From positions 1 through 64,000 of IMG/VR virus record IMGVR_UViG_3300044683_000172: a stretch of 64,000 nucleotides of DNA. One strand, given 5' to 3'. This document shows positions 6,301 through 58,443 of the stretch, one piece after another. Source of the stretch: a virus. The notes below the pieces were generated by a model, which did not search any database, had not been told where the DNA came from, and saw only the letters and a program-made list of their open reading frames with translations. Numbering within the stretch: the stretch's first letter is position 1; the number at the start of each line of letters is the position of its first letter. The position numbers and the translations under genes are program-made.

Positions 6301-6364
6301 CGCCCGTGAATGGTAGCGATTAATGTCAGTCAGAGATAGTGTTGACTTGCCTGTGCATCAGAAA

Positions 6365-6373
6365 TGGTATAAT
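6365..6373 (+). promoter_or_regulatory. extended -10 promoter element TGGTATAAT
   Basis: TGnTATAAT lies 36 nt upstream of the 6409 ATG, in the divergent gap between the portal and the plus-strand block. Confidence 0.45.
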
Positions 6374-6408
6374 CTTGTATCACATCAATCAGCTGCCTGG
6401 AGCTAACC

Positions 6409-7572: not shown

Positions 7573-8337
7573 ATGGAAGACTTGGAAAAGATCAAGGATC
7601 GCATTTCAAAGCTTCTGGCGATGGCCGATGACGCATCCAGCCCGGAAGAAGCCGCGATTGCTGCAGAGCGCGCTCGCAAGTTGATGGACAAATATCAACT
7701 GGAGCGATTCGATGTGGAAGGGCGCGTCAGCGAAGAGTTTGCATCGATGGCAGCCAGCCGCGCATTCGCGGCGGTTCCTCAATACATGGCCTTCTTGGCA
7801 ACATCCGTCGCCCGATACAACGACTGCCAGGCATTCTTTTCGTTCGATGAAGTCACATTCAAGAAAAAGAATGCGGCCTTCAAAAAGTTCGGCAAAGTCA
7901 TCTCGTTTCGCGGCTACAAGTCCGATGTTGAACTGGCTCATCAAATGTTCACAAAATTGATGAGCGTCGTTGACGGACTTTGCAAGGTATATCTCAAGGA
8001 CAAGGGCTACACCAAATATCCGGTGCGTATCGGCGGCCAGTTCAAGCTTGGCGCAATCATGGTCATCGGAAACCGAATCAACGAGATGGTGAAGGAGCGA
8101 GATGCCATCACATCCTCGTCGGGCAATGCGCTTGTCGTGATCAAGAAAACGGCGGTGGATGAACACTTCGGAAAATGTGAACCGAAGTACGTTAGCGTCA
8201 AACGTGCCGACCGAGACGAAGCAGAGGCCGACGCCCGACGCGCTGGCTACGTGGAGGGCTCCAAGGTCGAAATCGTTGGCTCGTTGGAGTCGGAAGAAGA
8301 GGGCGAGAGTCCGTCTTCGCTTCGACTTTCGGCTTAA
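7573..8337 (+). CDS. DUF2786-like protein
   Basis: N-terminus IKDRISKLLAMADDASSPEEAAIAAERARKLMDKYQL matches the DUF2786 pattern. AGAAAGGA leader. Confidence 0.65.
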   Translation: MEDLEKIKDRISKLLAMADDASSPEEAAIAAERARKLMDKYQLERFDVEGRVSEEFASMAASRAFAAVPQYMAFLATSVARYNDCQAFFSFDEVTFKKKNAAFKKFGKVISFRGYKSDVELAHQMFTKLMSVVDGLCKVYLKDKGYTKYPVRIGGQFKLGAIMVIGNRINEMVKERDAITSSSGNALVVIKKTAVDEHFGKCEPKYVSVKRADRDEAEADARRAGYVEGSKVEIVGSLESEEEGESPSSLRLSA

Positions 8338-8514
8338 AACGTGTACGTTCGGGAGCCGAAATTGCTCGGAATTATCAGAAAGGACTGGAGGCGGATTAAT
8401 AGCCTACTTTACTTCCACGAAAAGGTCGCTTGTGCCGTCTTCTTGGCGTTGATCTTCGGAGCGCCATTTGCGGTGAACATGTTCACCCGATAGACTTTCT
8501 GACGGGAGTCTGTC

Positions 8515-9023: not shown

Positions 9024-9263
9024 ATGACCCAGAAGCGATATGGCTGCCATAATCGGCCGCAATTGAAGACGTCCATGTTTGCGCAGGTCGGCTATCGCCA
9101 TGAGAAGCACATCTTGGATAACGGATGTGCGCGAACGGTCATGGTGCCGGTGTTCCGTCAGATCAGAACCAACTGGAAAGACGGCTGCAACTATGACCAA
9201 AAGGCAATCGATCCGCGTTGCCTTAACTGCCACCACCAGGAGAAAGACCATGCACATTCGTGA
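9024..9263 (+). CDS. hypothetical Cys/His-rich protein
   Basis: 79-aa ORF with AGAAAGGA leader. Several Cys/His residues (CHN...C...C...CLNCHH). Confidence 0.5.
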   Translation: MTQKRYGCHNRPQLKTSMFAQVGYRHEKHILDNGCARTVMVPVFRQIRTNWKDGCNYDQKAIDPRCLNCHHQEKDHAHS

Positions 9264-9909
9264 CTTCAGCGCAGCAAACAAAGCGCGCTCCGACAAGGAA
9301 TTCCCATCATGCGCCGATTGGCCGTTGGTCAATTGGATGAATGCCGCGCATGGCGAATTGGGCGAGGCGTCCAATGTTCTAAAGAAGATGCTGCGCGGCG
9401 ACTACGGCCCGAACGGCGAGCGCTCGCCCGAGTTTCTTGCGGCATTCGGCAAGGAGCTTCACGACGCTCTGGCGTACATCGATCTGGCTGCGACATGCGC
9501 CGGTCTGTCGCTGGAAACGGTGACCATCCAGAAGTGGAACGAAGTCAGCGAGCGCATCGGCTCGTCGATGCGCATCGACGCAGATGGGTTGTTCAACATC
9601 GAACAGAAGAAGCATTCCGCACCCGCTCTGGCCAGCGGATCGATCTGGCCTCGCCGTCTGAATCCGGATGAGGTGCGAATCGGTATGCTGGTGCGCTATG
9701 CCAACGGAGAAACGGCCCTGGCCAAGATCGCGTCGCCGCACGCCGGTGGATGGCACGCCCATCAATGCATGGGTGGAATGCTCTTCGTGAGCGCCAATGG
9801 GTATGGCGGCTATCTCTATGAGCCGACCCAACAGGACATCGATACGTGGAACGAGTGCAAGAAGTGGCGCACCGACTTCGGACGGCACGCCGACCCTTCT
9901 GGCGTTTAA
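9250..9909 (+). CDS. MazG-like all-alpha NTP pyrophosphohydrolase domain protein with extra C-terminal domain
   Basis: Internal ATG at 9250. WPLVNWMNAAHGELGEASNVLKKMLRGD...ELHDALAYIDLAA...KWNEVSERI fits the MazG-like pattern. Its stop overlaps the terL stop (TTAA, 9906-9909). Confidence 0.65.
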   Translation: MHIRDFSAANKARSDKEFPSCADWPLVNWMNAAHGELGEASNVLKKMLRGDYGPNGERSPEFLAAFGKELHDALAYIDLAATCAGLSLETVTIQKWNEVSERIGSSMRIDADGLFNIEQKKHSAPALASGSIWPRRLNPDEVRIGMLVRYANGETALAKIASPHAGGWHAHQCMGGMLFVSANGYGGYLYEPTQQDIDTWNECKKWRTDFGRHADPSGV

Positions 9910-11306
9910 AGATCGAAGAATCCTGCCGGGGCGCGCTTCGGCTTGATCAAGGACATGATTACGGCGTCGGCGATGTTTGGCGATTTGATTCCGCGCTTTT
10001 CTTTCATGTCCTTCTTCGATTCCACTTTGAACTTGCCCATCCCATCAATGTCCTTTCGGGGTGCGGCAAGTTCTTGGCACATCTTGTTGAGGGTCTTTTC
10101 GCCTACCATGGCGACAATCGCGTCTTTGTCGATTGAAACGAGTTCGTCAAATGGGTGATCGACACCCAAGACGACTGCTTCATAAGTCTTTCGGAACATC
10201 GATGCAACGCGATCCCACATCTGCGCCTTGATGTTCGAAAAGTGCTCTCTGTTGAGAATCTTGACGTGAGGCAATTCCATGTACACGCCGTCCGGCTCAA
10301 GAACGCTGCCGCCTGCGTTGAACGGGTTGTAGCTCAGAATGAATCCATCATTGTTCGAGTCATTCAACTCAGCAAACTTCGATCCAACGTGCGCTCCTAC
10401 GCCGATGGAGTCGAAGTTCACTTCTGCGCCATACACCTTTGCGGCATTGTAGACGCGCGTCGAAGATTTCAGAATTTCGTTCTCCAGCCCATCCCATTCT
10501 TCAACGTGATCGATGATGTTTCCGGTGCAACCGACCAAGGCATTCTTGTCGTCTCCGTCGTCTGCAACGTCGAAACCCATCACGCGCTTGCCTTCCTTTT
10601 TCCAGCCAAGCTTCTTGTGGGCGTCGATTGCGGCAAGTACATATTCAAGACTGATGACGCTCTTGTCGCCGCCAGTCTTTGGAATCCCTCCATAGACGTG
10701 TTCGGCGTTCTTCCGATCCTTGCGGTATGCGTCGGCAATGACCTTTAGCATCGTGTCGCTGAGGAATGGATTCAGTTGCCAATTGAACAGCCGCTGGATC
10801 GAGTCTTCCGGTGGATCAACAACGAAGTATTGATACACAAAGTCCATCATCTCATCTGGGTTCCAGATGATCCAAATCTGGGAGCCTTTCTTACGAATTG
10901 TCGGCTCGATGACGTTCCATTGGTCTTGTGTCAAGTAGTGAGCTTCTTCTAGCCAGAGGATATCGACGCCTTCAGTGGACTTGATTTCGCTCAGGTTACG
11001 AGCGATACCGTAGAACAGAAACGATGAGCCGGTGCGCTTGTTGACAATCGAGTTCTTCAGAATTTGGAAGTCATTGCGCCATGGGCTATCTTCGATCTTG
11101 TCTTTCAGAAGAGTGTACACCGATTCATCAATGCGGTTCTGGAACTGACGTGCGCAAAGAATCTTCAGTGTGAAGTTGGCCGCGAGATACACTGCAATGC
11201 CGGCAGCGTCGTGGGACTTGCCGGACGCACGTCCGCCATACAGGACTTTGTAGCGCTTGCGTGCGCGCCAGAAGTCCTTCAGATAAGGGTTGAGACGGTA
11301 AGCCAT
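9906..11306 (-). CDS. terL: terminase large subunit
   Basis: 466 aa. Walker A YGGRASGKSH near the N-terminus, WLEEAH Walker B-like motif and a C-terminal nuclease-type region. Resembles the PBSX-type terminase family. Confidence 0.92.
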   Translation of the reverse strand: MAYRLNPYLKDFWRARKRYKVLYGGRASGKSHDAAGIAVYLAANFTLKILCARQFQNRIDESVYTLLKDKIEDSPWRNDFQILKNSIVNKRTGSSFLFYGIARNLSEIKSTEGVDILWLEEAHYLTQDQWNVIEPTIRKKGSQIWIIWNPDEMMDFVYQYFVVDPPEDSIQRLFNWQLNPFLSDTMLKVIADAYRKDRKNAEHVYGGIPKTGGDKSVISLEYVLAAIDAHKKLGWKKEGKRVMGFDVADDGDDKNALVGCTGNIIDHVEEWDGLENEILKSSTRVYNAAKVYGAEVNFDSIGVGAHVGSKFAELNDSNNDGFILSYNPFNAGGSVLEPDGVYMELPHVKILNREHFSNIKAQMWDRVASMFRKTYEAVVLGVDHPFDELVSIDKDAIVAMVGEKTLNKMCQELAAPRKDIDGMGKFKVESKKDMKEKRGIKSPNIADAVIMSLIKPKRAPAGFFDL

Positions 11307-11511
11307 GCAGTGTCCTCAGATGTCATACGGCCACTATTGTATGGACTGAGGTTCACCAAAGATACGTCGCACGCAATCGAATATCAGAATTCCCGACCAA
11401 ATCATAGGGATATCACAAATATGTTGCCTGCTCGTCAGAAATGGAGCAATATTCACTCATGCGATGAACGTTGTCAATCAAACGGACTACGCAGAAGTTG
11501 AAGAAATTTCT

Positions 11512-18782: not shown

Positions 18783-18785
18783 ACG

Positions 18786-18814
18786 TTGATTCGTTCATCT
18801 GCGCCAACTAAGAT
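18786..18814 (+). promoter_or_regulatory. candidate sigma70 promoter TTGATT-N17-TAAGAT for the non-coding unit
   Basis: Hexamers at 18786-18791 and 18809-18814, 4 nt after the upstream stop codon. Confidence 0.4.
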
Positions 18815-18820
18815 TCGTCC

Positions 18821-19605
18821 TGTGCTGCGTTGATACCGGAGTTTGCCGCGCGACGGCTTTGAAGGTGAACCAAACGGCACGGCGCTTGTAGACCGCTTAA
18901 AGTCTACAGCCATTTATGGGCGAGTCCTTTATTGGACATCACTTGGAGACATCTAAGTGCCCATAAATGGCGGTCCCGGAAAAACGTATAGTCTGCTGCG
19001 TAGGCGTGCGCTGGTGGACGGCAGTACGGCCGTACGGGATCGCCAACCAGTTCCCAGCGTGGAGCGAACGATAACAGACCGAAAGGCGTCTATGCGCTTC
19101 TGGCGCGGTCTCAAGTCTGGTGCGCTTCATAGGCGAGGGTAGCGATGGCAGGCCGCGAGATAGTCTCCCCGTTTGGCGTCTTACGCACTTTGTGAGTGGC
19201 GCCCTTCGGTGTTCGTCTTTGAGGCGCCTTGCAGTGGCGTAACCCATTCCTCAAGGATGAACACCGAAGTCCTGTACGTCTCAGTGGTAGAGCGCGGTGC
19301 GGTATCCAATCCGTGCTGTGTGTCGTCGGTTCGATTCCGATCATGGACTTCAGCAAGCATATTCCGCTCAATCCCAGAACATCGACGGCGTGCGAGCAGG
19401 TGGCCTAGTCAGCCGCCACAACTGTTTCTCGCGGAAGCGCGTCTAAGGGGTTTGAACTACCGGACGCGGCAGAGAATCGACATGGGAAACCGCCTGAACC
19501 TGTCGGACAAGCCGGTACGTCCCGAGTGGCCGCGGTGAACGGTCAAGCAGCCGGTGAACTCACCCGAAGCCCGCGACACGTTGTGAAACGCTCGCGGGCT
19601 TCGTC
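18821..19605 (+). ncRNA. candidate large (~0.8 kb) structured non-coding RNA, class unknown
   Basis: No credible ORF on either strand. 13-bp helix 18909-18921/18959-18971. 21-bp helix 19204-19224/19248-19268 with two G-U pairs valid only for plus-strand RNA. Further helices, an embedded tRNA-like module and a terminator at the 3' end. Confidence 0.45.
19266..19351 (+). ncRNA. tRNA-like element (non-canonical cloverleaf; possibly a degenerate tRNA)
   Basis: T arm GTCGG-TTCGATT-CCGAT, D loop AGTGGTA flanked by CTC/GAG. Acceptor-like stem GAAGTCCTG/CA(T)GGACTTC. 7-bp anticodon-like stem with 8-nt loop TATCCAAT. No encoded CCA. Confidence 0.5.
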
Positions 19606-19610
19606 ATTTC
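19566..19610 (+). terminator. rho-independent-like terminator closing the non-coding unit
   Basis: GAAGCCCGCGA (19566-19576) pairs with TCGCGGGCTTC (19592-19602), followed by GTCATTTC. Confidence 0.5.
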
Positions 19611-19854
19611 TACGCCAGAAACAATCCCATCGTGAGGCGAGCGTATCGACCAAGAAAATGGCGTTCAAATTCGCGTAATACCCATTACGTTAAATTGCCG
19701 TTCGCTTATCGCACGCCAGAATAGCCTCATTGTTTGAGGTTGCGAAACAATCTCTCATCTCACTTCGGCCCTCAACCATTTGGATGAGTTGCCAATGTGC
19801 ATCTCGTCAGGCATGATTGAGTCACCTAAACGAATCTCATACGGAGATACCGAA

Positions 19855-20486: not shown

Positions 20487-21063
20487 TCTTTGTGTTCTTG
20501 GCACCATCGGACACATATTCGGGCGCGTCTTCGGTCGATTCCTCGTCGCCTTCCGCGATACCGGCAGCCTGCAACGCATCAGAACGGGCCGCTGCCGTCT
20601 CTTCGTCCATCTCAGGGATGGATTCATAGAATGCGTTGAGGTTCTTCACGGCACGTGTTTTTCCGTTCTCATCCACAAAAGTGATGTTAGCCAGAACATT
20701 CAACTCCTTGATAGCCGCGAGTTGAGTGGAGCACTTGACAAATGGATTGTGCACCATTTGCAGAAGCGAATTGATGGACTTCTTTTGGTTCCACAGCTTA
20801 TCCATCGGCATTTCTGCGAGTCGCTGTTGGAATGTGTTTTGGAACCACGGATTCTGCTCGATCTGCTCGGCGTACATCGAAACGTCTTCAGCACGGTAGC
20901 CAGGGCCAAATGCGCGTCGGAATGCGGTGTACGGCGTAAAGCCATCGATGCGATTCTTCACGTATGACTCATATTGAGGCAAGTTTGCGAGAGCCATACG
21001 CTCTTCAGCAAACATCCTCGGGTCATACGGATCGTGCTCGAATTCGCCTGTCGCTTTGCTCAT
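20482..21063 (-). CDS. possible terminase small subunit (otherwise hypothetical, acidic C-terminal tail)
   Basis: 193 aa. HTH-like FTPYTAFRRAFGPGYRAEDV, then a QLAAIKELNVLANI segment and an acidic tail, loosely like Terminase_2-type small subunits. Weak call. Confidence 0.35.
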   Translation of the reverse strand: MSKATGEFEHDPYDPRMFAEERMALANLPQYESYVKNRIDGFTPYTAFRRAFGPGYRAEDVSMYAEQIEQNPWFQNTFQQRLAEMPMDKLWNQKKSINSLLQMVHNPFVKCSTQLAAIKELNVLANITFVDENGKTRAVKNLNAFYESIPEMDEETAAARSDALQAAGIAEGDEESTEDAPEYVSDGAKNTKK

Positions 21064-21198
21064 GATTTTGGTGATGCCGCGTGTTCGGTTGATGCTCGCG
21101 ATTGTATGTGAACGTGTTCGTCAGAGATAGGAGGTGCTTTGGCTGTCTGTTTTGTGTTAGTTGGGATGCTGTGTACGTGCCGATTGTGGTAGTGCTTG

Positions 21199-21501
21199 GG
21201 TTTGCCGCCCGATAAATCAGAACCACTTGCCTTAATTGTCGGACGGTTTGCCGCGCCCAACTATTGGTCGTTCATTGCAACGCCGCGCGGGCATTGGGTT
21301 TGCCGCGAGTCTGTTTCTTCTTAGTTGTATTAATTGTAATAGTTGTATAAGAAAGAAATACGTATAGGCCCGTACATGTACGATCCCGTAAGAGTCTGAC
21401 GACCCACCCAATTATCCAACTTTCGCAACTATTGGACCTAAGTCCTTGATTCGAAAGAAGAAAGATAGTTGGGCGCGGCACAACTATTAGTTGCAACTAT
21501 C
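21199..21501. repeat. iteron cluster with AT-rich core (candidate origin of replication or pac/regulatory region)
   Basis: GGTTTGCCGC at 21199, 21245 and 21297. CAACTAT(T/C) in both orientations at 21258, 21338(-), 21426, 21464(-), 21481 and 21494. Palindromes CGTACATGTACG (21371) and TAGTTGCAACTA (21488). AT-rich 21313-21362. Confidence 0.6.
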
Positions 21502-21552
21502 TCGCGGCAAGTGTCCGCCACAACAATACATACCGCATCGCGAAACGCACAA

Positions 21553-21578
21553 CAACCAAGAAAAGCGCCCGAAGGCGC
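21553..21578 (-). terminator. rho-independent terminator after the helicase gene
   Basis: Minus strand reads GCGCC-TTCG-GGCGC followed by TTTTCTTGG, 10 nt after the stop at 21588. Confidence 0.7.
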
Positions 21579-21587
21579 ATTCTTCAC

Positions 21588-23348
21588 TCAAAACCCGCCA
21601 TTGGCAGACGATTTATCATCCTCAGCGGCTTCACCCTTGGCATCAGAATAATCACCTTCCTCATCAGCATCACCAATCTTGGACAAAATCCCCTTGTGCG
21701 GGTCTTCAAATTCCTCAACCGACGACCAATCATAAAAGCGATAAATCTTTCGAGCACCAGTGCCGATCACCGATTTCGCCCCCAAAGAAGCGAAGAAAGA
21801 ATCAACGTGGGACGGAATTGCATCTCGCTTTGATATGGCCAAAAGTCTTTGGTGGAACTCAACAGGCTTAATATCGACCGCAAACCGACCATGATTTTCC
21901 TTGCGGCCGCGCCACAAGTGCTTCTGGCACTTCAACAATGCCGTCACACCATAGGTCGCCAGCATCGAATCTTCCACCGCGCCAGACCCTCGATCCATCT
22001 CGTTCTGAGAGAATTTTTGCACCTCATTCGCCACCTGTCCGACCTCGTGATCGAACGCAGCAACGCCATTTTCCTCAATCCAACGAGCGGCCTCGGCCAA
22101 GCACAGCCACATGTACTCTTCGAAGCGACGATCTTGCGAAACAATCATCTCGCATTGATAAGGCGCTGGCTTCCAAGTTTTCTTGCCGTTCTTATCCGGC
22201 AACTGGCCGCAAAACACAGGATAAAAACGTCGGTTGCCCGTGTCATCTCGCTGAAGCCCCTCATACTTATTACCGTCCATCAAGATGATCCAACGCCGCA
22301 GCATCGTCTGCGATCCTTCGAACTTGAAATCAAAGGTATCTGACGAGTTGGTAACGAACGCCTTGACTCGATTCAAGTCGGCGCGCGTAAAGCCTGTCAT
22401 TTCTGGAATTGCCGCGACTACGCTATTGCCGGTGATCGTTCGAAGAAAGTCGATTCGCCCACCGCTCAGGTCCAGCGGCGTGGGAAACATCTTCTCGTCA
22501 CCCATAATCTCGCGCGTGATTCGAGTTCCGAAATGCGACTTCCCGCAGTTCTGGGCGCCAAATAACGACAAGACGATCCCAGCATTGTGGCCGCCATACA
22601 TCACACGCACGTAAAGCGATGTCCAAAAGTACCATCCCATTCGGCGATTCAGCGGCGTATCGAAGCACTCGAACAAATCCATCATGGACGTTTCGAGACG
22701 ATTCTTGCCGTCCCACTCCGGCAGCAACTTCGATAAACGCTCCTTCAATGGGTCGCGCCGAACGCTAAGCGCCCATTCAGCGAACGCATTTCGAACCGTC
22801 TCAGCGTTCTGTCCAAGCAAGTTCAATTCGCCCATCGCTTGGACTAAAGGCTCAATCGAATATTGCTTGTTGATTGTTTCGCCGTTCTCGTCGTTTCGAT
22901 AGCCGGTGAACTCATTATAGAAAGGTCGATGAGGCGAATCCTTATCCTCACCGAACAATAGCTCAAACGCTTTCCACCGATTGCGGTCGCTGGACATGTT
23001 TATCGTCGTCGGCTTTCCAGCGACGATCTTTTCGGTGTACTCTGGGAACTCGTTCAACCCGCTTTGTCGAATGGCTTTGGCGCGGGCAACCAAGTCCGGA
23101 ATCTCACGGATTTCAGCGAGACGACGTTTTGCTTCATCGCTGGAACGAGCCAACGTAATAACATTTAGCCGCGCTGCGTGTCGCGCTTTTTCTTCTCCGT
23201 CGGCGTCGGCGATTGAATCTGGCGCATCTGTCCAATCATCCGGCGAACTTCTTTCACCATCAGCCAGATCGCTTGGCTCCCAAGGCAGATCAGGAGTATC
23301 GTCACCAGGACTGTCAGGAATGTTGTCATTTTGCTTCTTCTTGGTCAT
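21588..23348 (-). CDS. VirE-family / SF3-type replicative helicase
   Basis: 586 aa. Walker A LFGAQNCGKSH, then DDTGNRRFYPV and PEWDGKNRLE motifs characteristic of virulence-associated protein E / D5-like helicases. Confidence 0.85.
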   Translation of the reverse strand: MTKKKQNDNIPDSPGDDTPDLPWEPSDLADGERSSPDDWTDAPDSIADADGEEKARHAARLNVITLARSSDEAKRRLAEIREIPDLVARAKAIRQSGLNEFPEYTEKIVAGKPTTINMSSDRNRWKAFELLFGEDKDSPHRPFYNEFTGYRNDENGETINKQYSIEPLVQAMGELNLLGQNAETVRNAFAEWALSVRRDPLKERLSKLLPEWDGKNRLETSMMDLFECFDTPLNRRMGWYFWTSLYVRVMYGGHNAGIVLSLFGAQNCGKSHFGTRITREIMGDEKMFPTPLDLSGGRIDFLRTITGNSVVAAIPEMTGFTRADLNRVKAFVTNSSDTFDFKFEGSQTMLRRWIILMDGNKYEGLQRDDTGNRRFYPVFCGQLPDKNGKKTWKPAPYQCEMIVSQDRRFEEYMWLCLAEAARWIEENGVAAFDHEVGQVANEVQKFSQNEMDRGSGAVEDSMLATYGVTALLKCQKHLWRGRKENHGRFAVDIKPVEFHQRLLAISKRDAIPSHVDSFFASLGAKSVIGTGARKIYRFYDWSSVEEFEDPHKGILSKIGDADEEGDYSDAKGEAAEDDKSSANGGF

Positions 23349-23903: not shown

Positions 23904-25007
23904 TTATGGTTTGATGAATGGCGGAACGCCGCGTGATGCGTAAAACTCATTGATCTTTTTCAAGTCATCCTCCACGACTGGCAAGACAATCTCGTCCACG
24001 AAGTGGCCCCAAGTCTTCTTGTTGGTCTTCCGGTGGACATCGTGCGCGCAGCCGAAGACGAATTCGATTTCTGCGCCAGGGATGGGACCTCGGAAGTAAG
24101 CGCCGCTCGGATCGCCGTTTCCGTGCTCGTGACCCCAGGGACAAATGATGCGGACCTTCCCAGAACCGTTCTCGCGCACTTCGCCGCCGTTCTCGCCCAT
24201 AGATGCACCAGACAGAATCTTCACCGCCATGTTGTATTGAACTTTCTCGGCGATGTACGAATCCTCGTCGATTGCTCGTTGGACGATGGGCGGAACTGTG
24301 AACGAAAATCCGAACGCGCGGCAGATGCGGTCGATGCTGTAGCGTCGTTCGTAGTCGTGGTCCCGCAACGTAACGCTCCAGGGCTTTCCTGTGTGTTCGT
24401 CCGGGTACTTCAGCGCCGCGCCCGGCTCCGACGATACGCGCTTATTGTTGAAGCCGATGGGCATGCGGCCGAAGCGGCTCACGTCCTTAATCGTGTTGTC
24501 GCCGCCCGCTTTCAGGACGCTGTTGACGAAGGCTTGTAAGAAGTATTTGAACCGGCGCATATCGGGCTCGGGCGCATCGAGAAAGTACCAAGCCTGATAG
24601 TTGCGCGGCGAAGTCTCCACGACTGCGGTGGGAACCAATCTTTCATAGAGCCATCGAAGGCTGAGGCCGCCTTTGGAGCCTTTGCCGTCTCCGATGTCGT
24701 CCACCATGAGCGCCATGCCGTGGCCGAAGGACGATTCGCCGCGCCAGTAGCGCATGACGCCGGATTTGGGGTGAGGGGTTTTAATGCTGGATGAGATGCA
24801 AACGTATGCGTTCGCATTCACATTGATGTACTTGCCGGGCTTGTAGGGTACGGGCCACCATCCGGCGTGCTTAACTTGGCCATTTTCGTCGCGTTGCAGC
24901 GTTGCTTCTTCTGCGTAACCGACCATGACCCGTTCATCTTCTGGAATTCCTCTTTGCAATTGAGTCAGGAATTCCTCTGCGATGTTATATCGCTCTTTCG
25001 GTGTCAT
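23904..25007 (-). CDS. DNA primase, archaeo-eukaryotic primase superfamily (RepB'-like) with C-terminal zinc-binding region
   Basis: MALMVDDIGDG (acidic motif), VVETSPRNYQAWYFL (RepB'-type motif), then CPWGHEHGNGDPSGAYF...FGCAHDVH. Lies upstream of the VirE helicase. Confidence 0.6.
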   Translation of the reverse strand: MTPKERYNIAEEFLTQLQRGIPEDERVMVGYAEEATLQRDENGQVKHAGWWPVPYKPGKYINVNANAYVCISSSIKTPHPKSGVMRYWRGESSFGHGMALMVDDIGDGKGSKGGLSLRWLYERLVPTAVVETSPRNYQAWYFLDAPEPDMRRFKYFLQAFVNSVLKAGGDNTIKDVSRFGRMPIGFNNKRVSSEPGAALKYPDEHTGKPWSVTLRDHDYERRYSIDRICRAFGFSFTVPPIVQRAIDEDSYIAEKVQYNMAVKILSGASMGENGGEVRENGSGKVRIICPWGHEHGNGDPSGAYFRGPIPGAEIEFVFGCAHDVHRKTNKKTWGHFVDEIVLPVVEDDLKKINEFYASRGVPPFIKP

Positions 25008-26872: not shown

Positions 26873-27010
26873 ATGATCAAAAGAAATGGCACATCGATCA
26901 TCTTTGCTTTCTTCGCGCTGATGTCGATCTTTGGTGGTGAAAAGGGCGCTGCGCTCGCATTCTTCTTCTTTTGCGGATTGACTTTGGATTTGAAGAGAGG
27001 GTGTGAGTGA
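26873..27010 (+). CDS. small membrane protein (45 aa)
   Basis: ATG at 26873 after GGAG. MIKRNGTSIIFAFFALMSIFGGEKGAALAFFFFCGL. Confidence 0.4.
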   Translation: MIKRNGTSIIFAFFALMSIFGGEKGAALAFFFFCGLTLDLKRGCE

Positions 27011-27852
27011 AACGAGAAGAGAATGAAATGTTGGACCAAATCAAATTCACTTCCGAGCACGAATTGCCTGTGCAATCCCTAAAGAGATCAGGGATTTACC
27101 GCATCGTATCGCCAAGCGGAAATTTCTATGTAGGAAGTGCTGTTGAAATTCGAAAACGATGGCGCAATCACAAGCGTCAACTTATCTCTGGCGTTCACCA
27201 CAACAAACCGCTGCAAGCTGCTGCCAAAAAGTACGGTTTGGAAAGCCTGCGATTCGAGATCATCGAGCACTGCGATTCTGATGTGCTCATTAACAGGGAA
27301 CAGTTTTACATCGACGCGCTGCGCCCTAAGTACAACACGTGTTTGGTGGCCGGAAGCCCACGCGGCGTGAAGCGTTCCGAAGAGACGAAGGCGAAGGTGC
27401 GCGCCGCGAATGTCGGCAGGAAGCACTCCGAAGAGACGAAGGCAAAACTGAGTGCCGCGAAGATCGGTAAGAGGCTTTCTGAGGACCACAAAGCGAAGTT
27501 GAGCGCGGCACGAATCGGCAAGATCGGCAAGAAGCATTCCGAAGAGACAAAGGCGAAGATGAGTGCGGCACACACCGGTAAGAAGTTTTCTGAGGAGCAC
27601 AAGGCGAAGATGAGCGCCGCGAATATCGGCAAGAAGCATTCCGAAGAGGCAAAGGCAAAAATGAGCGCGACACGAACCGGTAAGAGGCTTTCTGAGGAGC
27701 ACAAGGCAAATATGAGCGCCGCGCTTACCGGCAGGAAGCTTTCTGAGGAGCACAAGGCGAAGCTGCGCGCAGCGCGTCTGGCCTATTTGTCAAGGCGCAA
27801 CGGCGAGATTGGCACTTCGCTCGGATTTTCTTTCCCTGCTGATTCACTTTGA
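27007..27852 (+). CDS. free-standing GIY-YIG homing endonuclease with eight NUMOD3 repeats
   Basis: GIYRIVSPSGNFYVGSAVEIRKRWRNH (GIY-YIG), then 8 tandem SEE(T/H)KAK(L/M)SAAxxGKK units. GTG at 27007 or ATG at 27028. Confidence 0.9.
   Translation: MKREENEMLDQIKFTSEHELPVQSLKRSGIYRIVSPSGNFYVGSAVEIRKRWRNHKRQLISGVHHNKPLQAAAKKYGLESLRFEIIEHCDSDVLINREQFYIDALRPKYNTCLVAGSPRGVKRSEETKAKVRAANVGRKHSEETKAKLSAAKIGKRLSEDHKAKLSAARIGKIGKKHSEETKAKMSAAHTGKKFSEEHKAKMSAANIGKKHSEEAKAKMSATRTGKRLSEEHKANMSAALTGRKLSEEHKAKLRAARLAYLSRRNGEIGTSLGFSFPADSL
27376..27792 (+). repeat. 51-nt tandem coding repeats (NUMOD3 units)
   Basis: Eight 17-aa units (one of 20 aa) inside the endonuclease gene. These generate the spurious antisense ORFs 27088..27755. 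Confidence 0.85.
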
Positions 27853-29210: not shown

Positions 29211-29975
29211 ATGTCGCAAAACGAAGAACAAGCCAAGGCAGCACGGGACGAAGCAAAGGCCGCCAAGAAGGCCCAGCGCGAAGCCGAGAAGCAGCGCAAG
29301 GCCGAGGAAAAGGCCGCGAAGGACGCCGAGAAGCAAGCGCAGCGCGAAGCCGAACTGAAGAAGAAGGAAGAAGAGCGCGCCGCCAAGGCTGCCGAAAAGC
29401 AGGCCGAACGCGAAGCGAAGAACCGCGAAATGGCCGAGAAGCGCGAACAGGAAAAGGCCGCCAAGGCTGCTGAACGCGAAGCCGCGAAGGCCGAGGCCGC
29501 TGCGAAGAAGGAAGCCGACAAGGCCGCGAAGAAGGAAGCGCGCGAAGCCGAGAAGGCTGCTGCGAAGGCCCAGAAGGAAGCCGACAAGGAAGCGAAGAAG
29601 GCTGCCCGTCTGGCCGAAATCGAAGAGCGCAAGCAGGCTCGCAAGGCGGAAGCCAAGGCGCGTGCCGAGGCTGTGGCGGCCCGCAAGGCCGAAACCAAGG
29701 GCGACGGTCGGCGCGCGAAGGCAACGCACATCGTGTACAACGGCCATGGCCTGAGCAACCCGCAAGCAATGTCGGTGCGCGGCAATGTGCTGGCGAAGAT
29801 CAAGGAAAACTGCCCGGTCGGCGAACAAGTCAGCATCGAGCAAGTGGCCGCGTTCTGCAAGCCCGTTCTGTACGGCGCGAACGTTCGAAGCTTCCTGGCC
29901 AAACTCGAAGAGATGGGCCATCTGGATTTCGTGACCGTGTCCAGCGAGCCGGCTGCGGAACCTGAAGCCGCGTGA
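29211..29975 (+). CDS. Lys/Ala/Glu-rich coiled-coil protein with globular C-terminal domain
   Basis: About 160 aa of AKKAQREAEKQRKAEEKAAK-type low complexity, then about 90 aa of ordinary sequence (HIVYNGHGLSNPQAMSVRGNVLAKIKENCP...). Confidence 0.7.
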   Translation: MSQNEEQAKAARDEAKAAKKAQREAEKQRKAEEKAAKDAEKQAQREAELKKKEEERAAKAAEKQAEREAKNREMAEKREQEKAAKAAEREAAKAEAAAKKEADKAAKKEAREAEKAAAKAQKEADKEAKKAARLAEIEERKQARKAEAKARAEAVAARKAETKGDGRRAKATHIVYNGHGLSNPQAMSVRGNVLAKIKENCPVGEQVSIEQVAAFCKPVLYGANVRSFLAKLEEMGHLDFVTVSSEPAAEPEAA

Positions 29976-31889: not shown

Positions 31890-32716
31890 AAGTCACCCTC
31901 ATATCCCACACCCAAAACGCTCTGGAGCTTCTGGTTGATACGAAGCACACGCGTATGCGCGGCAAGACGGCCGATCAGATGACTGAAGCCGAACGATATG
32001 AGCACTTCCAGTACATGCTTGATACGATCCGCTCGCCGTTCGAGTTCGTTGATTACATCTTCCAGATCGAAGGCGTGTCCAAGAACTTCACGCATCAACT
32101 GGTTCGCACACGTACGGGCGCGTATCAGCAGGAAACCAGTCGCGCGCTGGAAATATCGGCCTTCGATACGATCAAGCCGAAGGCATTCGATGGAAACGGA
32201 CAGATAGATACGCCCTTGAATGAAGTTTGGGCGGACGCAATCGCCGATGCAGACGCCAACTACAAACAGTTGATTGCAATGGGCGCCGACCTTCAAGACG
32301 CCCGCGCCATCCTTCCGTCCAACATGGCCACCAAGATCATGGCCAAGTTTAATCTCCGGACGCTTTCTGATATGGCCAAGAACCGCCTGTGCGCACGTAC
32401 ACAAGGTGAGTATCAGGAAGTCTTTCGGGCAATGCGCGCGGCGGTGTTGGAAGTTCATCCCTGGTCCGACCCGCTCTTGCAGGTGGCGTGCGTTGCGACA
32501 GGGCAATGCGCCTTTCCGCGTTGGGGATCGAAGGTTATCGAGACGACGGCAAACGTACTGGGCCGCGATACCGTCATCGGTCAGAAGTATCAGTGTCCGC
32601 ACTATCGGCCTTGGATGGACCTGTCCGCTCAGAAGGAAGCATTGCGCGTATCCTTCTGGTCCAAGGAAGAAATCGCGCAAGCCAACCCCGTCGCCAAGAA
32701 TGGCGTTTCCATGTAA
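31886..32716 (+). CDS. thyX: ThyX-family (flavin-dependent thymidylate synthase-like) protein with variant signature motif
   Basis: FQIEGVSKNFTHQLVRTRTGAYQQETSRAL aligns with the ThyX RHRxxxxxxxS motif but reads RTR. Downstream ARAILPSNMATKIMAKFNLRTL...RLCARTQGEYQ fits the family. Confidence 0.8.
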   Translation: MKVTLISHTQNALELLVDTKHTRMRGKTADQMTEAERYEHFQYMLDTIRSPFEFVDYIFQIEGVSKNFTHQLVRTRTGAYQQETSRALEISAFDTIKPKAFDGNGQIDTPLNEVWADAIADADANYKQLIAMGADLQDARAILPSNMATKIMAKFNLRTLSDMAKNRLCARTQGEYQEVFRAMRAAVLEVHPWSDPLLQVACVATGQCAFPRWGSKVIETTANVLGRDTVIGQKYQCPHYRPWMDLSAQKEALRVSFWSKEEIAQANPVAKNGVSM

Positions 32717-44744: not shown

Positions 44745-45668
44745 ATGACCGACATCAAGAAGCCGATGCTTGCCCCGAATGATGAATTCGATGCTGACAC
44801 CTGCAAATTCCCCAAGCAGTGCTCGCCCAAGATCGATGGATTCCGCGCCTTCAACCAAGACGGCGTGATGTACACCCGCAGCGGCAAGCCGATTGCCAAT
44901 GAATTCACGCAGTCGCTGTTTTCACGAATCGAGTTCAGCGGCCTGGATGGTGAACTGGTTGTTGGCGAGCCGAACCATCCTGATGTCTTCAATAACAGCC
45001 AAGGTCCGCTGCGTCGGAAAGAAGGTGATCCTGGCGCTCGATGGTTTATCTTCGATGATCGAACTGATCCGACGCTGCCGTTTGAAGAGCGCATCCAGAT
45101 CGCCCATGCGCGCGTCTTTCAAATGCAACGGGAAGGAGTTCCGGGCTGCGATCGACTTGTGGCGCTGCCGCACATCATGATCCACGACAAGGATCATCTT
45201 GATCAATGCAAGTCCGACAACCTCAAAGACGGCTACGAAGGGACCATGCTGCGCGACCCGCAGGGCGTCTACAAGTTCGGCCGAGCCACGTACAAAGAGC
45301 AATTGCTGCTGAAGGTTAAGGACTTGGTTCACGAAGAAGGAACTATTCTCTATCTGGAAGAACAGATGATCAATGAGAATGAAGCTTTCAAGGACGAACT
45401 CGGTCGCACGAAGCGCTCTCAGCACTCCGAAAACATGGTTCCATCCGGCATGGCTGGCGCAGTGTGGATGAAGAACGATAAGTGGCCCGAACCTTTCAAG
45501 ATTTCCCTGGGCTCTGTGACGCACGAAGAGAAGAAGCGGATGTGGGCCTGCCGCGACCACTTCGTCGGGTGCATCGGAGCCTACAAGTACTTCGGCTACG
45601 GCTCAATCAACGCGCCGCGCCAAGGCGTTTGGAAGGGGTTGCGCTCGCCGGACGATATGGGCGAATAA
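44745..45668 (+). CDS. ATP-dependent DNA ligase
   Basis: Adenylation motif SPKIDGFRAF (KxDG), EGTMLRD, FGRATYKEQLLLKVK. Confidence 0.9.
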   Translation: MTDIKKPMLAPNDEFDADTCKFPKQCSPKIDGFRAFNQDGVMYTRSGKPIANEFTQSLFSRIEFSGLDGELVVGEPNHPDVFNNSQGPLRRKEGDPGARWFIFDDRTDPTLPFEERIQIAHARVFQMQREGVPGCDRLVALPHIMIHDKDHLDQCKSDNLKDGYEGTMLRDPQGVYKFGRATYKEQLLLKVKDLVHEEGTILYLEEQMINENEAFKDELGRTKRSQHSENMVPSGMAGAVWMKNDKWPEPFKISLGSVTHEEKKRMWACRDHFVGCIGAYKYFGYGSINAPRQGVWKGLRSPDDMGE

Positions 45669-45836
45669 TCGCCGTTTTCGTGGGCCGAAAGTCGCGGCCA
45701 GACGGTCGCGACGACCTAAACTTTCGCCTTATTTTGTGTACGTTCGGGAGCCAATTTTAAGTCAGAATCGAGTAGTAACGTTCATTTGTATCATATATGC
45801 TTTAATCATCACAGAAAGATTAGAAAGGATCAAAAC

Positions 45837-46220
45837 ATGGACCATACTATCACGCTCAACCGAAACGGCGCAACAAGGACGATTCCGGTTGGCTTCAGCT
45901 GGACAACGCTTTTCTTTGCCATCGCGCCTTCGATCATCCGCAATCACTGGTCGTTCGTTTGGTATTGGTGCTTTGCGAACTTTCTGTCCATTCTTGCGGT
46001 CTTAGCCTGTGTCAATCTCGCTGAGGCGTATCCGGAAGCCGCGAGCAACTTCAGCATTCTCAGCGTCTTCGCCCTGTTCTTCGGGCACGTTTGGTGCGCC
46101 GTCTACCGAAACGAAATGCTGCTGAAGCACCTGATCAAGGATGGCTGGCAACTCGGATTCATTCAGCCGGTTAAAGTGAAGGCGGCTGTAGAGCTAAACG
46201 GCGAATCGGCCAATCAATAA
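45837..46220 (+). CDS. multi-pass membrane protein (DUF2628-like; holin candidate)
   Basis: ATG after an AGAAAGGATCAAAAC leader. Hydrophobic spans FSWTTLFFAIAP..., FVWYWCFANFLSILAVLACV, ILSVFALFFGHVWCAV. Confidence 0.55.
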   Translation: MDHTITLNRNGATRTIPVGFSWTTLFFAIAPSIIRNHWSFVWYWCFANFLSILAVLACVNLAEAYPEAASNFSILSVFALFFGHVWCAVYRNEMLLKHLIKDGWQLGFIQPVKVKAAVELNGESANQ

Positions 46221-46230
46221 GGAGGGCATC

Positions 46231-46926
46231 ATGCTCAAGCGTATTTCCAAGTTCAAACTCAATGGATGGTTCGTTCTCGGCCTGTTCATCGCGGCCATCC
46301 TCTTGGCCAACGTCGCAGCCCAGCGCGGCAAAGACGCCCAAAAATCGGCCGGCAATATCATTGCTTCTCTGCCCGTTTCGGATGCAAAGATTGTTGACGG
46401 AACGATCCAAAAGAAGCTCAAGGTGACCGTCGATCCCAAGAATGGCCAGCAGATGTATGGATCGACAAACTATCTGGCTTGGCGTGACGAAATCACAGGC
46501 GGCAAATATTGGAATTTGATGACGTTCAGTTCCGATCAAACGCAGGCCATTTCCATCGTCCAGAACCCCAGCGGGCGCGGCGCGGTTTTCGTGTTTCCGA
46601 GGTGGCTCGCCGCCGACATGGATGGCAACGTCATCGTTCAAGCGCGCTTCACAATGCGCGATGGAACGGCCGTCGTTCGGGAGTACCGGGCGCGCCTGTC
46701 TGTCGTCCGCGAGACGATGAATCAGGCCGTGTTGCTGACGAAAGAAGCGTCCAATGACCTGGCAGCCCTCATGACGACATCCGTCCACGTCGCGGCCCGA
46801 GCGCCAGCCGCCAATGGCGAAGACACATTCATCCGGCTGCAGATCGACCCGGTTGATTGGATGGCGTCGATTCGAAATGAGCGGATTGTGCCGCTGGATG
46901 AAACGATAAACGGGAAGCAATCATGA
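46231..46926 (+). CDS. membrane-anchored hypothetical protein
   Basis: 231 aa with N-terminal anchor WFVLGLFIAAILLANVAA. Confidence 0.6.
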   Translation: MLKRISKFKLNGWFVLGLFIAAILLANVAAQRGKDAQKSAGNIIASLPVSDAKIVDGTIQKKLKVTVDPKNGQQMYGSTNYLAWRDEITGGKYWNLMTFSSDQTQAISIVQNPSGRGAVFVFPRWLAADMDGNVIVQARFTMRDGTAVVREYRARLSVVRETMNQAVLLTKEASNDLAALMTTSVHVAARAPAANGEDTFIRLQIDPVDWMASIRNERIVPLDETINGKQS

Positions 46927-47090
46927 GGATTGCCCTGGTTTTTGTTCTTCTAGTGTTAACGGGATGTAGTACAATTCAGGAGCGCTATTCTCGCGCCTAT
47001 GAACGCCATCCCTGCGGCAACATCTGGGACTACTGCCCAGGAGATAACGAGTTCATTGACCAACTCAATAAGATTCTCCAGGGGAAATAG
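46923..47090 (+). CDS. small lipoprotein (55 aa)
   Basis: MRIALVFVLLVLTGCS lipobox. ATGA overlap with the upstream stop. Confidence 0.5.
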   Translation: MRIALVFVLLVLTGCSTIQERYSRAYERHPCGNIWDYCPGDNEFIDQLNKILQGK

Positions 47091-47092
47091 TG

Positions 47093-47329
47093 ATGTTCCG
47101 TCGATTCAGAAAGCCGCGCGCAGTTGAAGGGTCGGTATTCTCGCCAGCCAGCAAGGAAACTACCGACCAATTGACCATCGTCTTGATCAAGTTGATCGGC
47201 GAGACGGTCCACGGGAAGCTTCTGAGGGCGGCCCTGGTCGGCGCGGTTTCGGCGGGAACGTACTATGCCACGGACACAGGGCAAACGCCCAATCCAACGC
47301 ATCAAGTCGCCGTCAAACCGGCGCAATAA
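47093..47329 (+). CDS. hypothetical protein
   Basis: ATG at 47093 (GTG at 47090). 78 aa. Confidence 0.45.
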   Translation: MFRRFRKPRAVEGSVFSPASKETTDQLTIVLIKLIGETVHGKLLRAALVGAVSAGTYYATDTGQTPNPTHQVAVKPAQ

Positions 47330-47356
47330 AAAGGGCTCCAATCGGAGCCCTTTTCT
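47329..47356. terminator. bidirectional rho-independent terminator between convergent genes
   Basis: AAAAGGGCTCC-AATC-GGAGCCCTTTT lies exactly between stop codons at 47327 and 47357. Confidence 0.75.
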
Positions 47357-47809
47357 TTACTTGATCCATCCCGGCATATAACCCGTGCCGGTCTTGATGG
47401 TCAGAAGTTGCCGTCGTGGCTTCTGGCCTGCAGGAGCAAGACCGATGTGGACCCAACGACCGAATTCATGGATGAGTTGATCAAACTCGATTCCGGCGCG
47501 TTGGATTGCGAGTCCGAATTCATACGGCGTCATGCCCGGCTGGTTGATGTCCGCAGCGAGACCTAGAACATGGGCGCTGTTCGCGGCGCCGCCAACGGCC
47601 TTGTTGAGCTCAGGGCAACGGTAGCCGCTGGTGACGATGATCGGCTTGTTGCCGGCTGCCTTGGAGCGTACTTCTTCCAGCGTCTGCGCCGTCCGAAGAA
47701 GATTGGCCAGGGCGAAGTCCGACGGCGTGTTGTCGATTCCGCGACGCGCGGCTGTATCGCTGGCCGTGAGCTCTGCCAGGGTGAAGTGCGTAGTCAGTTG
47801 ATTGTTCAT
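47357..47809 (-). CDS. endolysin, peptidase M15 family
   Basis: HFTLAELTASDTAARRGIDNTP and VTSGYRCPELNKAVGGAANSAHVLGLAADI. ATG at 47809 has a GGAG SD and an ATGA overlap with the upstream gene. The ORF track start is 47827. Confidence 0.9.
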   Translation of the reverse strand: MNNQLTTHFTLAELTASDTAARRGIDNTPSDFALANLLRTAQTLEEVRSKAAGNKPIIVTSGYRCPELNKAVGGAANSAHVLGLAADINQPGMTPYEFGLAIQRAGIEFDQLIHEFGRWVHIGLAPAGQKPRRQLLTIKTGTGYMPGWIK

Positions 47810-57946: not shown

Positions 57947-58443
57947 TACAATAGCCCCAGGAGATTCTGACCAATCGTCGCCGCGACTTGAAGACCGCTT
58001 TGGAGGCCGGCGAACGATCCGAAGGCAAATGTGTACGTGTTGGCCTTCTTTCGGCCCGTTTGGATGATGCTGTCTGCGAGTGGCCCTTTGACAATCGTTC
58101 CATTCGTCAACATCACCATCCCATTGTTTGGATACTGAATGGACATCGATGTCACATCTTCAATCGGCAAAATCGATGGACCGCTCTTTTTATTGGAAAG
58201 CAGAATGCGAAGATTCATGTCATCTTCGCTTCCTGGAATCACGGATACGTGCGCCAATACAGGAGCCGCACTTTCGAAGGAGTACAATCCGCCATCGTAC
58301 ATCATTTCATACCCGACGGGTTGGACTTCTTCGAAAATGATAGGGTCAACATCATCAGCGAATTCGGACAAGGTGAATCCCATAGGGAAGGTCTGGAGGG
58401 CCAGAACCGTAACCTTGGCTCCAAATCCGCTGATGTTTTGCAT
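57946..58443 (-). CDS. tail tube-like protein (second paralogue)
   Basis: MQNISGFGAKVTVLALQTFPMGFTLSEFADDVDP parallels the tube protein at 59359..59823. Confidence 0.6.
   Translation of the reverse strand: MQNISGFGAKVTVLALQTFPMGFTLSEFADDVDPIIFEEVQPVGYEMMYDGGLYSFESAAPVLAHVSVIPGSEDDMNLRILLSNKKSGPSILPIEDVTSMSIQYPNNGMVMLTNGTIVKGPLADSIIQTGRKKANTYTFAFGSFAGLQSGLQVAATIGQNLLGLL

Follow-up and report, generated by a model that had tools for sequence, protein, structure and literature searches.

The first 64,000 nucleotides (nt) of the 68,892-nt metagenomic phage contig IMGVR_UViG_3300044683_000172, hereafter the window, carry a 33-nt element twice on the plus strand, once at the end of a DUF2786 gene and once between a DNA ligase gene and a lysis-type gene cassette. 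A pattern search in related phages, which had been suggested when the repeat was noticed from the sequence alone, found the element kept at these two syntenic intergenic sites. The 33-mer is the conserved core of a module of 60-80 nt, which is laid out from 5' to 3' as a hairpin, an AT-rich hexamer (often TAnnnT), the heptamer GTGTACG, a spacer of 2-4 nt, a Shine-Dalgarno (SD) sequence, and usually a start codon. We put the probability at roughly 0.5 that this is a terminator-plus-restart 'punctuation' module, in which a -35-less promoter and a short leader would be combined with a heptamer read by a factor. The element is best filed as a lineage-specific addition to a known class of phage intergenic punctuation or expression modules. 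The parts of its two copies are as follows.

8325-8349, plus strand: core of copy 1, ACTTTCG-GCT-TA-AAAC-GTGTACGTT, which includes the TAA stop of the DUF2786 gene (8335-8337)
8341-8347, plus strand: heptamer GTGTACG of copy 1
8350-8357, plus strand: tail of copy 1, CGGGAGCC, a Shine-Dalgarno region (GGGAG at 8351-8355) that is followed after 6 nt by the TTG at 8362
45720-45744, plus strand: core of copy 2, ACTTTCG-CCT-TA-TTTT-GTGTACGTT, non-coding throughout
45736-45742, plus strand: heptamer GTGTACG of copy 2
45745-45752, plus strand: tail of copy 2, CGGGAGCC, SD-like; AATTTTA replaces the GAAATTG of copy 1, and there is no start codon

Counts of copies refer to the window. A pattern scan recovered the identical 17-mer GTGTACGTTCGGGAGCC on the plus strand at 8341-8357 and 45736-45752, the same coordinates as in the sequence-only reading, and none would be expected by chance. 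No third site was present in the window at up to 3 mismatches (0.07 expected). A 33-nt pattern matched only 8325-8357 and 45720-45752, again on the plus strand (0.00 expected), and the two copies are identical at 28 of 33 positions; the similar upstream sequence that had been reported is thus real, although copy 2 begins at 45720 rather than 45719. A stop codon had also been placed at or just before each copy, and this did not hold: the TAA of copy 1 lies inside the element, and the ligase stop (45666-45668) is 52 nt upstream of copy 2. A search for degenerate copies, in which up to 5 of the 18 specified positions could mismatch, returned chance-level matches only. The 8-mer GTGTACGT is over-represented (5 in the window vs 0.46 expected). 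Three extra copies of GTGTACGTG are found at 21171-21179 (plus), 32394-32402 (minus), and 58031-58039 (plus), one of them in a putative replication origin; the other two run antisense within ThyX and within a structural gene of the minus strand. All three lack the remainder of the element.

The core pattern ACTTTCG-N3-TA-N4-GTGTACGTT was searched in IMG/VR, Joint Genome Institute (JGI) metagenomes, and GTDB genomes. Five of the matches from the 17-mer and core-pattern scans are genuine phage loci, and the others arose by chance within coding DNA of unrelated organisms. For instance, the exact 17-mer matches in IMG/VR (loci L001-L005) are unrelated chance matches in coding DNA, the core-pattern matches on bacterial contigs (L014-16, L018, and L182-183) are likewise chance and unrelated, as are both core-pattern matches among 185,579 bacterial genomes. 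Single-protein searches of IMG/VR with the flanking genes gave no match, and no further copies were found in 1.5 Mb of related loci.

At site 1, defined as the position after the DUF2786 gene, the core is present in L008 (identical to L009 and L019) and L013, which came from the core-pattern search, and in L184, which was reached through the C-termini of DUF2786 homologues. At site 2, the ligase/lysis junction, it is present in L017 (core-pattern search) and L189 (reached through ligase homologues). All five keep 18 of 18 specified core positions, while the flanking proteins of these phages are 41-79% identical. L189 keeps the entire core and differs at the end, which reads GTGTACGAA; the CGGGAGCC tail is common to the two copies of the window phage only, and not to its relatives. 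Outside this group, L187 and L188 keep GTGTACG and have other hairpins instead of ACTTTCG, L196 and L197 keep GTGTACG with ligases that are ~43% identical, and L195 has the only variant heptamer, GTGTTCG. Since the distant relatives retain only GTGTACG, the invariant unit is the heptamer, and the 33-mer is a version confined to a narrow sub-clade.

Still other relatives carry different signals at the ligase junction. In L193, L194, and L203, GAGTGTATAAATAC or GAGTGTATTAAAT stands in place of GTGTACG, ~45-60 nt after the ligase stop, in a sequence that resembles the T4 late-promoter box TATAAATA. Phages XcP1 and Pluto keep the synteny and lack the motif, and have a TATACT box within a hairpin at the junction. 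This different -10-like box and hairpin suggest that the ligase/lysis junction is a regulatory point across the family. In L184, an L013-like gene end is joined, across the element, to an L008-like downstream block. From ACTTTCG on, L184 and L008 differ by 1 base in 56 nt, and their adjacent genes have ~77% identity; the block is therefore either strongly constrained or recently exchanged.

The layout of the module was compared over 12 sites from approximately 10 phages. The hexamers of site 2 are TATTTT, TATAGT, TAGAAT, TATATT (twice), ATTAAT, TTATAA, and CGTTTT, five of the eight being TAnnnT, and those of site 1 are TAAAAC (twice) and TAGGGC (twice). An SD-like sequence is present 2-4 nt 3' of the heptamer at 8 of the 12 sites, and a start codon 13-18 nt past it at 7 of the 12. 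The genes that are opened in this way are unrelated: a 43-codon membrane peptide at copy 1, a Cys-rich protein of 79 amino acids (aa) in L013, mini-open reading frames (ORFs) in L187 and L189, and a 42-aa lipoprotein in L195 and L197. A conserved unit thus precedes unrelated genes and is coupled to their SD and start codon, as expected of a portable intergenic expression signal.

Further downstream, the leader AGAAAGGA that had been described after both copies is present (8377-8384 and 45822-45829), but it is a generic ribosome-binding site (RBS) context and lies outside the element. The related sequence CAGAAAGGA occurs 6 times, always in intergenic DNA, and 5 of the 6 occurrences are directly before a start codon. 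A TCAGAA box 34-35 nt 3' of the heptamer was considered as a second conserved box; it is partly explained by this generic CAGAAAGGA context together with shared ancestry. Within the gap of L187 (6010-6071), CGTACAC, the exact reverse complement of the heptamer, occurs ~50 nt downstream of it, and at a similar distance in L189 (5994-6050) there is CGTACAT, which could form 7 bp with the heptamer, one of them G.U. These two loci also have TATAAT/TAGAAT boxes 6 nt before an ATG without SD, a leaderless-type arrangement.

The sequence-only reading held that the conservation was one of sequence and not of fold, because the TTTCGGCT/AGCCGAAA pairing of copy 1 has no counterpart in copy 2. That pairing is indeed specific to copy 1. 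Another partner for ACTTTCG is, however, found upstream of both copies.

8304-8310, plus strand: possible 5' arm CGAGAGT, which pairs with ACTTTCG at 8325-8331 (7 bp, one G.U, 14-nt loop)
45682-45728, plus strand: hairpin region of copy 2, with outer arms CGAAAGT (45686-45692) and ACTTTCG (45720-45726) and an inner GTCGCG...CGCGAC stem

The 5' arm of copy 1 falls within the DUF2786 coding sequence, and minimum free energy folding favours other folds there. The homologue of the copy 2 hairpin in L017 has an 11-bp outer stem. An upstream CGARRGT is able to pair with ACTTTCG in five instances, and its A-to-G changes keep the pairing on the sense strand only. When stems were compared with shuffled sequences, those of L017 (P=0.0002) and L013 (P=0.007) were significant, and the evidence was weak for copy 1 (P=0.13) and copy 2 (P=0.07) of the window. 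The idea that all sites share a hairpin with ACTTTCG on its 3' side was thus rejected, given this weak evidence in the window and its failure in L184 and L189. The hairpin arms did not align in MAFFT, RNAalifold found no shared structure among five site-2 sequences (-1.9 kcal/mol, with an unfavourable covariation term), and Rfam gave no match to the element either at the gathering threshold or at E<=1; these null results agree with conservation of the sequence itself. A loose structure-aware scan of 1.5 Mb returned only noise.

Hairpins do nevertheless recur across sites. In every site-2 example the hexamer is preceded, at a distance of 0-3 nt, by a stable hairpin (-11 to -24 kcal/mol), the sequence of which is lineage-specific, as terminators would be expected to show. 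In L197 and L195 the hairpin followed by TTATATTGTG was scored as an intrinsic terminator by the scanner, and in L188 folding gives a strong 10-bp stem followed by UUUUGUGU. Copy 2 has the T-rich stretch TTATTTTGTGT (8 of 11 positions) after its stem and a 27-nt loop, and no terminator was called there; the terminator scan of the copy 1 gap found no T-run.

No sigma-70 consensus promoter (TTGACA/TATAAT-like boxes 16-18 bp apart) was found by the promoter scanner in either gap of the window, or in the corresponding gaps of L187, L189, L195, and L197. Most other plus-strand gaps of the window have clear TTGAC../TATAAT-type boxes. Extracytoplasmic function (ECF) sigma, sigma-54, sigma-28, and sigma-32 promoters and the MotA box were compared by eye, and none fits in spacing or sequence. 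Among the candidates originally offered, a non-sigma-70 promoter or a regulator site is the class best supported by the comparative data, since the element is conserved in synteny and laid out before unrelated genes; the endonuclease target that had been listed beside them is not supported and is discussed below.

The reading that we favour is that this phage clade places the module at the head of plus-strand gene cassettes. In the sub-clade of the window phage the 3' arm of the hairpin would be ACTTTCG(SC), followed by the TAnnnn hexamer, and hairpin and T-rich hexamer would end or attenuate transcription arriving from upstream, i.e. from the DUF2786 block and the ligase block. Because hairpin and hexamer are terminator-like in L197, L195, and L188, the downstream genes would need a restart. 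A promoter lacking a -35 box may then restart transcription at, or within, the heptamer, such that the hexamer would double as T-tract and -10-like element and GTGTACG would be the discriminator or +1 region. The heptamer is invariant while its surroundings drift, and it is thus probably read by a specific factor, which could be phage-encoded or a phage-modified RNA polymerase. Copy 2 would in this manner set the timing or the level of the holin/spanin cassette, and copy 1 would do likewise for the small membrane peptide and the accessory cassette. Precedents for such a module are the phage-specific promoters of Pbunavirus 14-1 and the coupling of terminators to promoters in bacteria, both described below.

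Several points weigh against this proposal. Promoter activity is purely an inference from sequence. A -10 function does not hold for every site, since the key -7 T is missing from both site-1 hexamers (TAAAAC and TAGGGC) and the hexamer of L188 is CGTTTT. With no T-tract and a weak hairpin, copy 1 should be a poor terminator. There are only two copies, while a phage-specific promoter class normally has more members, and none stands before the minus-strand late operons of the window. In L187 and L189 the extra boxes lie next to the ATG of the first cassette gene, which may thus be independent of the element. Finally, a scan of 30 non-structural proteins yielded neither a sigma factor nor an RNA polymerase, and no obvious DNA-binding regulator.

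In phage T4, promoter early stem-loops (PeSLs) are repeated promoter/stem-loop modules in intergenic regions. The element resembles them in being a short repeated intergenic stem-loop with promoter-like A/T-rich sequence, and in its position at the borders of variable cassettes, where it doubles as a homology block for cassette exchange. It differs from PeSLs in having two copies per genome, no sigma-70 -35/-10 consensus, and GTGTACG downstream of the A/T-rich box. A similar likeness holds for the coupled terminator-promoter units of bacteria, insofar as these are outlined in a preprint that presents such coupling as widespread (10.64898/2026.08.19.745784).

A bolder version of the punctuation-module reading is that a transcription system specific to the clade recognises GTGTACG and thereby times holin/spanin expression and lysis. 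We consider this speculative and rather unlikely. A gp55-like sigma substitute, or a protein that modifies RNA polymerase as proposed for phage 14-1, would direct the host polymerase to -35-less promoters overlapping the terminators of preceding operons, in a large uncultured family of myoviruses related to E217 and PB1. The T4 late promoters consist of the TATAAATA box, lack a -35 box, and number dozens per genome. The Pbunavirus 14-1, from the same broad phage family as the window phage, has 11 phage-specific promoters with a CTGGG motif ~5 bp from the transcription start site, which are inactive without infection (PMC10914365). Like both of these classes, the element has its motif near the presumed start, no -35 box, and a presumed phage factor, and the distant relatives L193, L194, and L203 have GTGTATAAATA at the ligase junction, which may be compared with the T4 late promoters. 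In contrast to the 11 promoters of 14-1 and the dozens of T4, the window phage has two sites and a different motif; CTGGG is absent from both copies, and no gp55-like or gp12-like factor was found among the 30 proteins scanned.

A further analogy is the late control region pR'-qut-tR' of phage lambda, which lies upstream of the lysis genes S-R-Rz. By analogy only, copy 2 could be viewed as a comparable compact promoter/terminator region directly before a holin/spanin cassette. Unlike in lambda, no Q-like protein, sigma-70 promoter, or conserved pause element was identified in the window phage, and its structural genes are on the other strand and not downstream.

The main competing explanation, which we regard as possible though doubtful, dispenses with the promoter: the module would be a leaky terminator combined with a translation-initiation region. 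The hairpin, together with a U-rich tract ending in GUGU, would attenuate transcription arriving from the upstream operon, and the downstream genes would be translated from read-through mRNA by means of the adjacent SD. The constraint on GUGUACG would act in the RNA, where it could, for instance, serve as a ribosome standby site, mark a 3' end or a processing site, or be the target of an RNA-binding protein or small RNA. Such a model accounts well for site 2, where the T-tract of the terminators called in L197 and L195 takes in the hexamer and GTG and where the strong hairpin of L188 and copy 2 are followed by UUUUGUGU and TTATTTTGTGT, respectively. It is also consistent with the SD just past the heptamer at most sites, with the sense-strand G.U pairing of the 5' arm, and with the sense orientation of both copies. 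However, neither copy 1 nor the other site-1 examples have a U-tract, the site-2 sequences share no common RNA structure or Rfam family, and a terminator has no need of an invariant heptamer.

Alternatively, a phage repressor or activator could bind double-stranded GTGTACG (together with ACTTTCG in the sub-clade), and such an operator would time the lysis and accessory cassettes regardless of where transcription starts. A short invariant sequence with drifting flanks at the head of a lysis cassette fits this idea, as does the excess of GTGTACGT, one occurrence of which is in the putative iteron origin. We nevertheless judge it improbable, as the heptamer lacks dyad symmetry, no candidate DNA-binding protein is apparent among the proteins scanned, and the three extra GTGTACGTG sites, two of them intragenic, lack the rest of the element.

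A role in replication was examined as well. The RSF1010 single-strand initiation (ssi) signals have a 5' CCTTTC tail and a hairpin with a wobble pair, and priming starts at T32 of GTG (PMC8567376, PMC4434180). The window phage has a gene for a PF16793 RepB_primase protein (23904-25007, minus strand, E=6e-34); CTTTC and GTGT both occur in the element blocks, and most sites have a hairpin ahead of the heptamer, with GTGT 4-9 nt past the hairpin. By analogy with ssiA and ssiB, the element could thus be an ssi signal for a RepB'-type primase, with a hairpin followed by GTG and a primer start on the displaced plus strand. Although the architecture is appealing, the co-occurrence, strand, and location tests failed, and we consider this reading very unlikely. 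The primase is a core gene of the family, with homologues of 55-78% identity, and is also present in element-free phages (Pbunavirus, Carpasina, Pluto, WTB, and a 69,844-nt contig); unlike in RSF1010, element and primase do not co-occur across the family. ssiA and ssiB are on opposite strands beside the iterons, whereas both copies here are on the plus strand at 8.3 and 45.7 kb, ~13 and 24 kb from a putative iteron origin with iterons at 21.2-21.5 kb. The CTTTC is the 3' arm of the hairpin and there is no 5' tail, sequence search gives no link of the primase protein to RepB' structures, and the tie to SD and start codon would go unexplained.

Equally remote is a target of the GIY-YIG/NUMOD3 homing endonuclease encoded at 27007-27852, or of another site-specific enzyme that mobilises cassettes. 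Like homing sites, the element is asymmetric and long; it borders regions of variable gene content, and L184 is mosaic across it. However, the endonuclease gene is ~18 kb from either copy, whereas free-standing enzymes of this kind cleave close to the place where their own gene is inserted, no gene for an integrase or recombinase turned up beside either copy, ordinary homologous recombination produces mosaicism at any conserved intergenic block, and the coupling to SD and start codon is not accounted for. Least probable of all is a functionless recent intragenomic duplication or gene conversion: the window copies share the CT of N3 and CGGGAGCC, which the two sites of relatives do not share and which suggests copy-to-copy homogenisation, but several phages with only 41-79% identical proteins and diverged flanking intergenic DNA have retained core and heptamer at both sites, and L184 and L008 differ by only one base in 56 nt beside genes of ~77% identity.

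The window phage, to which a Logan contig is 100% identical, has a G+C content of 54% and belongs with the E217/PB1-related myoviruses. Its nearest cultured relatives are the Xanthomonas phages XcP1/Carpasina, the Luteibacter phage Pluto, and the Burkholderia phage WTB, with protein identities of only ~30-60%, and no near relative was found among deposited phages. The gene map was built from codon usage and agrees with the Logan gene calls. Copy 1 has the following setting.

7573-8337, plus strand: DUF2786/DUF7168 gene, the C-terminal extension of which (ending ..SLRLSA) crosses the left part of copy 1
8362-8493, plus strand: 43-codon ORF that begins with TTG; its product, a membrane peptide, is hydrophobic in a C-terminal segment
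8515-9909, plus strand: cassette 3' of copy 1, with genes for 87-aa, 62-aa, Cys-rich 79-aa (9024-9263), and 219-aa (9250-9909) proteins
9906-11306, minus strand: TerL, which converges on the copy 1 cassette with a 4-nt overlap (9906-9909)

The ORF at 8362-8493 is the frame that remains open, with high G+C at third codon positions, beyond the TAA stop, and probably comes first among the genes that copy 1 serves. Within it, 8376-8400 is an orphan CAGAAAGGA context with no canonical start in range and only an ATT (8395) in the open frame, which looks like a remnant of a lost or shifted gene start. The cassette differs in size and gene content between relatives, and the interval from DUF2786 to TerL ranges from ~0.15 to 1.8 kb. 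Among the DUF2786/DUF7168 proteins (homologues P0001-P0107), one subfamily has an acidic, Ser-rich C-terminal extension ending ..(R/K)LS[AQ], whereas the majority of homologues terminate at ..VEIVKSVEE. A first idea was that the ORF merely reads into an inserted element; L185, however, has a homologous extension (..GTLRLN at its end) without the DNA element, and either the extension or the element may have come first.

Copy 2 lies among the following genes.

44745-45668, plus strand: ATP-dependent DNA ligase gene, upstream of copy 2
45837-47329, plus strand: lysis-type cassette, downstream of copy 2
45837-46220, plus strand: 127-aa multi-transmembrane (TM) holin-like protein
46231-46926, plus strand: 231-aa protein with an N-terminal TM anchor
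46923-47090, plus strand: 55-aa lipoprotein with the lipobox LVLTGC
to 47329, plus strand: small ORF at the end of the cassette
47357-47809, minus strand: M15-peptidase endolysin, which converges on the cassette

Based on its multi-TM, TM-anchor, and lipobox features, this is inferred to be a lysis cassette of the holin/inner-membrane spanin (i-spanin)/outer-membrane spanin (o-spanin) type, and its synteny is kept in L017, L187-L189, XcP1, and Pluto. A small terminator-like hairpin (45660-45673) is present at the end of the ligase gene, and a 27-nt gap (47330-47356) separates the cassette from the endolysin. No terminator was found between either plus-strand cassette and the converging minus-strand late gene (TerL and endolysin, respectively), and convergent transcription into the late genes is therefore possible. 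The copy 1 and copy 2 cassettes were considered as paralogues that arose by segmental duplication, and BLASTP rejected this.

Other features of the window were noted in passing. A 590-nt gap (20998-21587) directly upstream of the VapE-helicase (21588-23348, minus strand) and RepB-primase genes looks like a replication origin. It has three direct repeats of GGTTTGCCGC(G) at 21199, 21245, and 21297, spaced by 46-52 nt, inverted copies at 21465-21480 and 21498-21510, three occurrences of CAACTATTGG/TAG, and an AT-rich stretch at ~21309-21360. A 1.07-kb region without a convincing ORF (18783-19854) contains the tRNA-like T-arm sequence GGTTCGATTCCGATC and a 21-nt inverted repeat (19204-19224/19249-19269); neither ARAGORN nor Rfam (E<=1) gave a match there, and tRNA searches found nothing. 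The GIY-YIG gene contains six 51-nt tandem repeats (27318-27787) that correspond to five NUMOD3 motifs. The 10-mer TCAGAAATGG occurs at 6340-6375 and 11420-11455, in the divergent promoter regions of portal/DUF6011 and TerL/early genes, each time directly before a -10-like hexamer (TATAAT and AGCAAT), and may be a shared regulatory box. The gene at 29211-29975 encodes a very repetitive Lys/Ala/Glu-rich protein with imperfect 33-66-nt repeats (29244-29600) and has no Pfam match.

The proposed punctuation module does not overturn current views, as similar modules are already known in other phages. If the proposal is correct, the module would mark both the end of replication-gene transcripts and the switching-on of the lysis genes, and the heptamer would serve as a bait sequence for the factor that reads it. 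The module would also be a compact terminator/promoter/RBS part and a marker of cassette borders for annotating related metagenomic phages. In a widespread uncultured relative of the therapeutic PB1/E217 phages, the heptamer would thus represent a mutable 7-bp handle on the timing of lysis.

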